From contig NZ_JAVZIN010000001.1 of NCBI RefSeq assembly GCF_038871235.1, forward strand, positions 86,508 through 150,507: 64,000 bases of DNA, read 5' to 3'. The position numbers and the translations under genes were made by a program. Of this stretch, positions 17,057 to 31,042 are shown in pieces; within the stretch, counting starts at the first letter, position 1, and each line of letters begins with the position of its first letter. The notes beneath the pieces are model-generated. The model was not told where the DNA came from. It was given only the letters and a program-made list of their open reading frames with translations, and ran no database searches. The DNA is from Candidatus Hadarchaeum sp. GTDB taxonomy: Archaea; Hadarchaeota; Hadarchaeia; Hadarchaeales; Hadarchaeaceae.

Positions 17057-18286
17057 CTACGAGAGCGGCGGCCTAGTGCCCAGCTCAACGGAGACATTAA
17101 TGGTGGTGTTGCTCCTGACTACCGTGAATTTAACCACCTGCCCCGGGGTGGTGTTTTCCTCAAGGTAGCTCATCAGATCATCAAGGGTAATTATGCGGTG
17201 CCCGTCGACGGCTATCAGGATGTCGCCCCCGATAGTCACCACAGCACCAGTTGAAGTCAAGTACTGCTTGGTGCCACCGCGCAGGCCCGCCTTATCAGCA
17301 GGGCCTCCAGGGACTACCGAGACGACCAGCCAACCGTAGGTCACGTCGGTGTTCATGGCTCGGGCAATCTCGTAGTCCATGTCGCGCCCCAAAATGCCAA
17401 GCCAGGGATGTTTGTTGTAGGTGCCTGTTTTTACCAGCGCCTCTATCTCGCGCAGAATTGTGTTTGAGGGAACGGCGAAACCCAAGCCCTGGGAATCGGC
17501 GACAATCGCGGTGGTGATTCCAACTACCTGACCAAGAACGTTCAGCAGCGGCCCGCCTGAATTGCCGGGATTTATTGGTGCGCTGGTCTGGATGATGTTC
17601 GCGATTGAGTAGTTTCCAATGGTTGACTCCTGTATTGTGCGACCGAGCTGGCTCACTATCCCCACCGTCATCGAGCCGGTGAGGCCGTAGGGGTTGCCCA
17701 CCGCCACCACCGTATCACCGACCTTCAACGTGGACGAGCTGACGATCTCCAGCGTCTTGATTTCATGGCTGGGGACGCTGAGGGAAAGCACGGCGAGGTC
17801 TGCATATGGATCCGAGCCGAGCAGCGTGGCGGGATAGGCGTTGCCGTTTCTGAGCGTCACCACTATCTCGCTGGCACCGCTGACCACGTGGTAGTTGGTC
17901 ACTATCACTGGCTGGCCCTCAAAATTATACCAGAAACCAGAGCCCTGAGCCACCCTACCAGAAAGTGTGGAGCGAATCACGACGACGGCGTCCTTGACCT
18001 TTTCATATAAGTCAGGGAGAGAAAAATTCTCCTGCACCACGTGAATGACATTTTCCCTCGCCAGCCCAGAGATCTGGTCGCTGATTGACGAAATTTTGTT
18101 TTCCAGCGCTAAGAGCTGCTCCTCAAGTGAAGACACCTGGCCTTGGAGGTTTTTAACCTCCTGCCAGGTTATCATGTAACCGGCCACTGCACCGGCAAAA
18201 ATGCCGACCGCCAGCACCAAAACGACCAACCCAACCAGCAGCCGGCCTGAGTAGCGGCCTCGGCGTCTCGGCAAACCATTCACCAA
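17057..18286 (-). CDS. HtrA/DegP-like membrane-anchored serine protease with PDZ domain
   Basis: TM plus coiled coil, GSGF, VTNYHVV, DLAVL, INPGNSGGPL, PDZ GGPADKAGL. Confidence 0.93.
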   Translation of the reverse strand: MVNGLPRRRGRYSGRLLVGLVVLVLAVGIFAGAVAGYMITWQEVKNLQGQVSSLEEQLLALENKISSISDQISGLARENVIHVVQENFSLPDLYEKVKDAVVVIRSTLSGRVAQGSGFWYNFEGQPVIVTNYHVVSGASEIVVTLRNGNAYPATLLGSDPYADLAVLSLSVPSHEIKTLEIVSSSTLKVGDTVVAVGNPYGLTGSMTVGIVSQLGRTIQESTIGNYSIANIIQTSAPINPGNSGGPLLNVLGQVVGITTAIVADSQGLGFAVPSNTILREIEALVKTGTYNKHPWLGILGRDMDYEIARAMNTDVTYGWLVVSVVPGGPADKAGLRGGTKQYLTSTGAVVTIGGDILIAVDGHRIITLDDLMSYLEENTTPGQVVKFTVVRSNTTINVSVELGTRPPLS

Positions 18287-30719: not shown

Positions 30720-30871
30720 TGGCGCCGGGGAGAGGACTCGAACCTCTGACCGCTCGGTTGCTGTGCCCAGACGTGTCGTCTTTTTTTATTGAGGTTCGTT
30801 CTTCATTCACATCCGGTTTAACAGCCGAGCACTCTACCTACTGAGCTGTCGGGCCGCAACGGAACCCCGGC
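30720..30871 (-). tRNA. tRNA-Asn(GTT) with two introns: 16 nt at 8/9 (30848-30863) and 60 nt at 37/38 (30759-30818)
   Basis: Removal gives a 76-nt cloverleaf GCCGGGG-TA-GCTC AGTAGGTA GAGT-G-CTCGG CTGTTAA CCGAG-CGGTC-AGAGG TTCGAGT CCTCT-CCCCGGC-G-CCA; both junctions fold as BHB. Confidence 0.88.
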
Positions 30872-30875
30872 ATTT

Positions 30876-30882
30876 CCCCGGC
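30876..30882 (-). repeat. Second copy of the tRNA-Asn 5' acceptor strand (GCCGGGG) in the leader
   Basis: Minus strand reads GCCGGGG-AAAT-GCCGGGG. Confidence 0.85.
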
Positions 30883-31042
30883 ACTTCTTACTTTTCCACC
30901 GAATTCATAAGCTTTTGCCCAGTTTATCCCTTGCCCCCTCAGGAGCAAACTGCCTCTGCTCAGCTTTACCTATTCAGCAGTCGACAATGGTTGCTCATGC
31001 TCCTCTCTTCGTCCAAGCGGGTTCCAAGCATTGAGTCAAAAA

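Follow-up and report, generated by a model that had tools for sequence, protein, structure and literature searches.

Introns of archaeal tRNA genes outside the canonical 37/38 position are listed by Yoshihisa (2014, PMC4090602) for the sites 20/21, 22/23, 25/26, 29/30, 30/31, 45/46, 53/54, 56/57, 59/60 ‘etc.’, and a site at 3/4 is called extreme there. In some tRNAs with several introns, one of them must be removed before the next bulge-helix-bulge (BHB) motif can form, as described in the tRNAscan-SE 2.0 paper (PMC8450103). A maximum of three introns per archaeal tRNA gene is given in that paper and by Fujishima 2011. Regarding the order of processing, tRNA ends are trimmed before intron removal in Methanopyrus kandleri (Su 2013). 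Kaneta et al. (2018, PMC5829648) reported that Hadesarchaea combine an L3-loop-bearing alpha4 splicing endonuclease (EndA) with numerous disrupted tRNA genes.

Here we describe a tRNA-Asn(GUU) gene of Candidatus Hadarchaeum sp., a hot-spring archaeon of the Hadarchaeota, with an intron between positions 8 and 9 and a copy of the 5' acceptor strand in its leader. The reading that we consider probable from the comparisons below comprises a single-copy tRNA-Asn with two protein-spliced introns and a leader copy that would free the 5' strand for the BHB. The first-pass annotation of this DNA, made from the letters alone, knew of no documented 8/9 site, and none was found in the literature available to us, nor was a leader copy of the acceptor strand; primary position tables and supplements may list 8/9. 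Neither feature is mentioned in the accessible parts of Fujishima & Kanai 2014, Chan 2011, PMC8450103, Kanai 2015, Fujishima 2011 and an Asgard preprint of 2026, the last of which lumps ‘acceptor stem and junctions’ together.

Anatomy and copy number of the tRNA-Asn gene

The gene is located in the window, the whole 64,000-nt stretch of DNA that was analysed. Its features are given in the direction of transcription.

30904..30911, minus strand: TATA-like promoter box CTTATGAA, by consensus resemblance only
30876..30882, minus strand: copy of the 5' acceptor strand in the leader, GCCGGGG, which by our proposal pairs with the 3' acceptor strand in place of the original
30872..30875, minus strand: spacer AAAU from the leader copy to the mature 5' end
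30871-30720, minus strand: tRNA-Asn(GUU) gene, three colinear exons within 152 nt
30864..30871, minus strand: exon 1, tRNA positions 1-8, GCCGGGGU
30848..30863, minus strand: 16-nt BHB intron between U8 and A9, UCCGUUGCGGCCCGAC
30819..30847, minus strand: exon 2, positions 9-37 by Rfam tRNA alignment, AGCUCAGUAGGUAGAGUGCUCGGCUGUUA, starting AGCUCAG
30759..30818, minus strand: canonical 60-nt intron at 37/38
30720..30758, minus strand: exon 3, positions 38-73 plus encoded CCA, A-CCGAG-CGGUC-AGAGGUUCGAGUCCUCU-CCCCGGC-G-CCA
30730-30724, minus strand: 3' acceptor strand CCCCGGC, within exon 3

A split or permuted tRNA is ruled out by the colinearity of all three exons on one strand. Exon 2 contains the D arm, the 5' strand of the anticodon stem and the anticodon GUU. 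In the window allele 29 nt separate the start of the TATA-like box from the leader copy, and 40 nt separate it from the mature 5' end.

The insert at 8/9 is a strict hBHBh' motif with the order h-H-B1-h'...h'-H'-B2-h. Its outer helix h consists of G1C2/G10C11 and is invariant among intron alleles, the central 4-bp helix H pairs C3-G6 (CGGG) with CCCG, and two 3-nt bulges, GU^U and AC^A, lie on opposite strands. The inner hairpin h' reads CCG-uug-CGG in the window allele and comprises 2-5 bp among intron alleles. The first-pass annotation had proposed a textbook BHB at this site, and all elements it named, CGGG/CCCG, the two 3-nt bulges and the flanking helices, are present. It had further predicted that excision of 16 nt restores U8-A9 and yields a 76-nt tRNA. 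The restored junction is the one found in 36 intronless orthologs, and the product of that length is reached with the 60-nt intron at 37/38 also taken out: with both introns computationally removed (16 nt and 60 nt), the tRNA-Asn(GUU) has 76 nt and includes U8, A9 and the encoded CCA.

The 27-nt BHB piece folds into H and h' when taken alone, and it is not more stable than its shuffled versions (z +0.63; 142 of 200 shuffles fold as well). Fold energy alone is therefore not evidence for the BHB. Without its leader, the window precursor is predicted to retain the acceptor stem and to form no BHB.

The host genome (1.2 Mb, 94.75% complete) contains one tRNA-Asn locus in a BLAST search with the precursor. 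A second GUU tRNA was found in the assembled genome neither by ARAGORN or Rfam nor by a scan for acceptor and T arm, which bears on a check proposed with the first-pass annotation, namely that this be the sole Asn tRNA of the genome. A single-copy, functional tRNA-Asn(GUU) gene is the best explanation of these sequence searches, with the reservation that a completeness of 94.75% does not strictly exclude a second copy. ARAGORN reports the gene neither in the window nor in the genome, and the Rfam tRNA model matches positions 9-63 only (30.6 bits at a cut-off of 29; anticodon loop CUGUUA), so that both forms of failure foreseen for standard scanners, missing and truncating the gene, occurred. 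The 8/9 intron is unchanged in the assemblies of two further samples, one of them from another study; three assemblies from two studies thus agree.

The genome encodes a single EndA gene of 179 aa with N and C domains (PF01974 and PF02778), which is, judged by its sequence, of the homotetramer type. RtcB (601.7 bits) and RNase P RNA (198 bits) are encoded as well. Judged by their translations, one neighbour of the tRNA gene resembles an ornithine cyclodeaminase-like gene and the other is a 273-aa gene. An origin from a mobile element was considered and rejected, as no integrase-like or endonuclease-like ORF adjoins the gene.

Several further observations concern other tRNAs of the same genome. 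About ten expected anticodons are unaccounted for by standard finders. A candidate tRNA of 168 nt with the acceptor GCGGGGG/CCCCCGC lies outside the window on the minus strand of contig C1 of G000 (18027-18194); it has a good T arm and several inserts and was missed by Rfam and ARAGORN. Neither a leader copy nor an acceptor-proximal intron was found in the other detectable tRNAs of this genome.

The canonical intron contains the motif AUGAAGA-ACGAACCUC at 30806-30791, and AUGAAGA-RCGARCCUC recurs in the canonical intron of 58 of the 60 orthologs. Within this motif, RCGARCCUC is the complement of GAGGUUCG in the T arm of the same tRNA (positions 50-57; 30739-30746), with an A/G variation that keeps the pairing with U54. 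A box C/D guide RNA is known inside a tRNA intron, that of tRNA-Trp of Haloferax; guides of this kind have C and D (and C', D') boxes, and their target pairs 5 nt upstream of D or D'. Such a guide was rejected for the intron at 37/38: the C-like AUGAAGA is present, but no CUGA occurs at the required spot. A Cm56 guide RNA was likewise rejected, given that there is no D' box, that none of the Rfam families matches the 60-nt intron and that Trm56 is encoded in the genome, as is fibrillarin.

Orthologs and covariation of the 8/9 intron

Orthologs were collected from 66 Hadarchaeota genomes. In 60 of these tRNA-Asn could be parsed, with one locus each by BLAST with the precursor; completeness is 75-91% in the six genomes that gave no match. 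Among the 60 genomes the exons are near-identical, and exon 1 is identical in 59 of them, with GCUGGGGU in G038. An 8/9 intron of 15-21 nt occurs at exactly the same place in 24 orthologs from 24 species. In the remaining 36 A/G-GC comes straight after the exon 1 sequence GCCGGGGU, as predicted for the junction; R9 is mostly A and in some cases G.

Among the 24 intron alleles 21 are distinct, providing 210 pair cells for the analysis of covariation. Standard pairs were found in 96.2% of these cells, and the central helix H is paired in 98.8% of its cells in the 21 distinct alleles. On the intron strand H' the variants are only UCCG, CUCG and ACCG, and in 23 of the 24 alleles all positions of the strand can pair (Watson-Crick or G-U). 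Changes on both sides occur in three of the four pairs of the inner helix h', including C-G to U-A in 7 of 21 alleles. The covariation score was reached by none of 500 shuffles, and in slid controls, with the partner moved by 1-3 columns, pairing dropped to 23-40%.

Covariation in relatives had been put forward as a check in the first-pass annotation, and it is found in the inner helix among the intron alleles. From the alignment we conclude that the 8/9 intron is real and selected for its BHB shape. That it is both real and spliced appears very likely. Every checkable statement of the first-pass annotation thus stood; what it had not seen were the intron at 37/38, the spare strand in the leader and the reported richness of Hadarchaeota in disrupted tRNA genes.

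Both states of the gene coexist within five genera, with ratios of alleles with and without the intron of 4/4 (g1), 4/9 (g8), 2/3 (g9), 1/2 (g10) and 1/1 (g11). A tree built from the remainder of the gene, with 87 columns and many unresolved forks, requires 14 changes of the intron label, and at least four of these changes are forced by well-supported branches.

The orthologs also differ in the number of intervening sequences, with one in 17, two in 32, three in nine and four in two of the 60 genes. The two genes with four (L170 in G045 and L179 in G043) have them at 8/9, in the D arm, at 37/38 and at 59/60 in the T loop. The candidate D-arm inserts are 28-31 nt long and follow about G22-G24; the candidate T-loop inserts at 59/60 measure 24-31 nt.

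The leader copy and its proposed role

A leader copy of the 5' acceptor strand stands 1-4 nt upstream of the mature 5' end in all 24 intron alleles, across four families. We lean towards the leader copy being a needed folding aid for the 8/9 intron. Another reading, which seems unlikely to us, accepts the intron as real and takes the copy as a passive scar of intron arrival or of a small duplication, kept by linkage next to a BHB that would form transiently and unaided. That no intron allele in the four families lacks the copy, despite diverged spacers which vary among the orthologs in sequence and length, argues against a scar. So do the changes within the copy itself, which preserve pairing (C to U) or shorten the inner end. 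GCCGGGG is found in 18 alleles, GCUGGG(G) in four, and GCCGGG or GCCGG in two; GCUGGGG forms a G-U wobble with the 3' strand, and the other variants are shortened at their inner end. The 3' acceptor strand CCCCGGC is identical in all 24 intron alleles, and within tRNA-Asn no covariation signal between copy and 3' strand is therefore possible.

Two of the 36 intronless alleles, both from family f5, retain a perfect copy, as might be expected of a scar, and a third shows a doubtful pattern match 13 nt upstream. Moreover, copy and intron lie about 30 nt apart and one recombination event moves both. The relatives are not independent, and linkage alone could give part of the co-occurrence. The f5 pair (L036 in G031 and L037 in G028) has a shorter canonical intron of 42 nt. 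As a speculation, these alleles are compatible with a precise loss of the 8/9 intron, possibly via a spliced RNA still bearing the leader.

The position of the promoter differs between the two states. In intron alleles a distance of 27-34 nt separates the TATA start from the leader copy. A TATA-like box is recognisable in 30 of the 36 intronless alleles, and in 28 of those it lies 30-37 nt from the mature end, with outliers at 20 and 40. In intron alleles the copy consequently sits where transcription should begin, and we infer from the promoter spacing alone that transcription starts at or near it. This shift of the promoter, placing the copy at the expected start, speaks against a passive scar; the observation that alleles within a genus differ in their whole 5' regions including the promoter is in line with one.

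As to these 5' regions, a conserved promoter region CCTTATATGG-N-GGATATTATCC occurs upstream of many tRNA-Asn alleles (L007, L012, L013, L024, L025, L028, L033, L035, L165 and L171-L175). Another promoter region is found in the window allele and its closest relatives, though genus and downstream neighbour are shared. The 5' part of the tRNA-Asn locus seems, from such comparisons, to be exchanged as a block.

Bases 3-6 of the tRNA are needed both in the central helix and in the 5' strand of the acceptor stem, and acceptor stem and splice motif are mutually exclusive as a result. When the leader is left out, the acceptor stem appears in the predicted folds of all 24 precursors and the BHB helix in none of them; with the leader, the copy is paired to the 3' strand in the predicted minimum-energy folds of all 24. 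Forcing the central helix costs a median of 8.7 kcal/mol at 37 °C and 5.5 kcal/mol at 70 °C without the leader, an amount that makes an unaided BHB beside a mere scar less plausible; with the leader the medians are 1.1 and 0.0 kcal/mol, respectively. At 37 °C the exact central helix belongs to the minimum-energy fold of only eight of the 24 alleles with leader, and at 70 °C it lies within 1 kcal/mol in 19 of the 24. After computed removal of the intron the copy, and not the real strand, is still paired to the 3' strand in 22 of 24 cases. The model hence predicts no switch back after splicing, a point in favour of a scar, and under the folding-aid reading the switch would have to be driven by tertiary contacts or by RNase P drawing the equilibrium over.

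According to the mechanism we propose, the transcript would begin at or near the 7-nt leader copy GCCGGGG, and this copy would pair with the 3' acceptor strand CCCCGGC. The real 5' strand would thereby be free to form the BHB with the intron. The homotetramer-type EndA would cut both bulges and RtcB would join U8 to A9. Subsequently, the real strand would displace the copy, the cloverleaf would form and RNase P would take off the 11-nt leader. The spliced mature tRNA is predicted to read GCCGGGGUAGCUCAG. In such a copy-dependent order removal of the 8/9 intron would have to precede 5' trimming. Both the pairing role of the copy and the order of the steps are what we infer from the data above.

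The same design was searched for in other tRNAs of the 66 genomes by patterns of duplicated acceptor strands. The GCCGGGG pattern gave 23 places, 20 of them in tRNA-Asn, one in a tRNA-Met(CAU) of G038 and two outside tRNAs. This tRNA-Met (L197, G038:C1:155600-156050, minus strand) has its 19-nt 8/9 intron directly after GCCGGGG-CUGA-GCCGGGGU. In its predicted fold the outer BHB helix reaches 6 bp through pairing of the spacer CUGA with the D-stem sequence GCUCAG. With the GGGCCCG pattern three places were obtained, all of them a tRNA(CAU) (L183, L184 and L185 in G019, G060 and G009). They read GGGCCCG-A-GGGCCCGU followed by a 23-nt intron, which is located at 8/9, or at 9/10 by the bulge rule. 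Their acceptor differs from that of tRNA-Asn, the leader copy matches their own acceptor strand one base upstream, and the minimum-energy fold with leader is a textbook BHB. A matching copy in a different tRNA with a different acceptor is a further point against a passive scar; the cross-tRNA support for the copy comprises only two acceptor sequences. The GCGGGGG pattern led to 11 places, none of them a tRNA and all of them G-rich and apparently coding. Ten lack a 3' acceptor strand within 260 nt, and the eleventh (L194) has its CCCCCGC match in apparently coding sequence without tRNA features. A pattern scan of the genome collection returned at least 119 stretches. Among the matches listed, nearly all are chance matches in high-GC bacteria, and the useful archaeal loci are L077 and L106, of which L106 is identical over the tRNA-Asn locus to L027 from the same genus as the window genome.

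Far less probable than a scar is a copy whose main function is in initiation, as an initiator or initially transcribed element, or in delaying RNase P like a timer, and not in presenting the BHB. Its place at the predicted start site, with a pyrimidine before its first G in intron alleles, and its persistence in two intronless alleles would suit this role, which would predict neither the association with acceptor-proximal introns (24 of 24 versus 2-3 of 36) nor the match to each tRNA's own acceptor sequence.

Slightly less probable still, the upstream GCCGGGG could be the true 5' acceptor strand, with a 7/8-type intron of about 27 nt made up of the spacer, the second GCCGGGG and the 16 nt. Position 8 would then be A or G, depending on the spacer of the allele, whereas all 36 intronless orthologs have U8 directly after the downstream copy, and the latter is always followed by U and then by the intron. 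Both copies do pair equally well with CCCCGGC, and the upstream one lies at the usual promoter distance, but it is the upstream copy that reads GCUGGG(G) in four alleles and is shortened in two, and the first bulge would have no inner helix after it. The upstream copy was rejected as a real exon, as position 8 would not be U.

Just as improbable is an unspliced insert in a decaying pseudogene or an assembly artefact, with the Asn gene in the unassembled 5% that a completeness of 94.75% leaves, which is contradicted by the same architecture with covariation in 24 species, by near-identical exons in 60 genomes with exactly one Asn locus per genome (BLAST) and by the agreement of three assemblies from two studies.

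Starting from the leader copy as a folding aid, a wider reading can tentatively be put forward, to which we give slightly less than even weight. Archaea may generally depend on a spare acceptor strand, transcribed at the very beginning of the precursor, as an obligatory cis-acting folding device. Such a strand would enable BHB introns at 3/4 to 9/10, where the splice motif has to borrow the acceptor stem, force splicing before RNase P and mark hidden introns. The spare strand may even arise first and open acceptor-borrowing positions to intron gain. If the device is general in this sense, the intronless f5 alleles that keep the copy would be pre-adapted or freshly intron-free.

Comparison with known splicing systems

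The gene structure described here explains the apparent absence of an essential tRNA from Hadarchaeota annotations. A duplicated acceptor strand upstream also provides a simple signature for tRNA genes that are missed or truncated by finders. How archaeal tRNA introns are gained and lost can be studied well at this locus, given its patchy distribution and the presence of both states in five genera. Should the spare strand act in the proposed way, it would show how a splice motif is presented against the most stable helix of a tRNA.

Regarding lineage and enzyme, our findings correspond to those of Kaneta et al. 2018 for Hadesarchaea, as lineage and enzyme type, here one EndA of 179 aa, are the same. 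The available text of that study (PMC5829648) gives neither intron positions nor a leader feature. Similar to the non-canonical BHB introns of Thermoproteales and others, the intron is short, is defined only by a transplantable BHB, would depend on EndA and ligase, and belongs to a kind often found beside an intron at 37/38. It differs from the sites listed in PMC4090602 by its U8/A9 position, by a central helix that borrows the acceptor strand and by the accompanying leader copy. In kind it is an ordinary BHB intron; as far as the literature available to us extends, the 8/9 position and the conserved helper element are new.

With the split and permuted tRNAs of Nanoarchaeum, Caldivirga and Thermofilum the locus would share the feature that transcribed sequence outside the mature tRNA is needed to present the splice site to EndA. 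In those tRNAs the flanks themselves form the BHB helices, in trans or across the permuted junction, whereas the tRNA-Asn gene is contiguous and the effect of its copy would be indirect, in that it keeps the 3' acceptor strand occupied. As in multi-intron tRNAs, the splice motif competes with other structure, which enforces an order of processing. There the competition differs from that in tRNA-Asn, where it takes place with the acceptor stem and the order concerned is that of splicing versus RNase P. If true, the order proposed for tRNA-Asn would require the intron to be gone before the 5' end is trimmed, the reverse of the order measured in Methanopyrus kandleri, to which it would be an exception.
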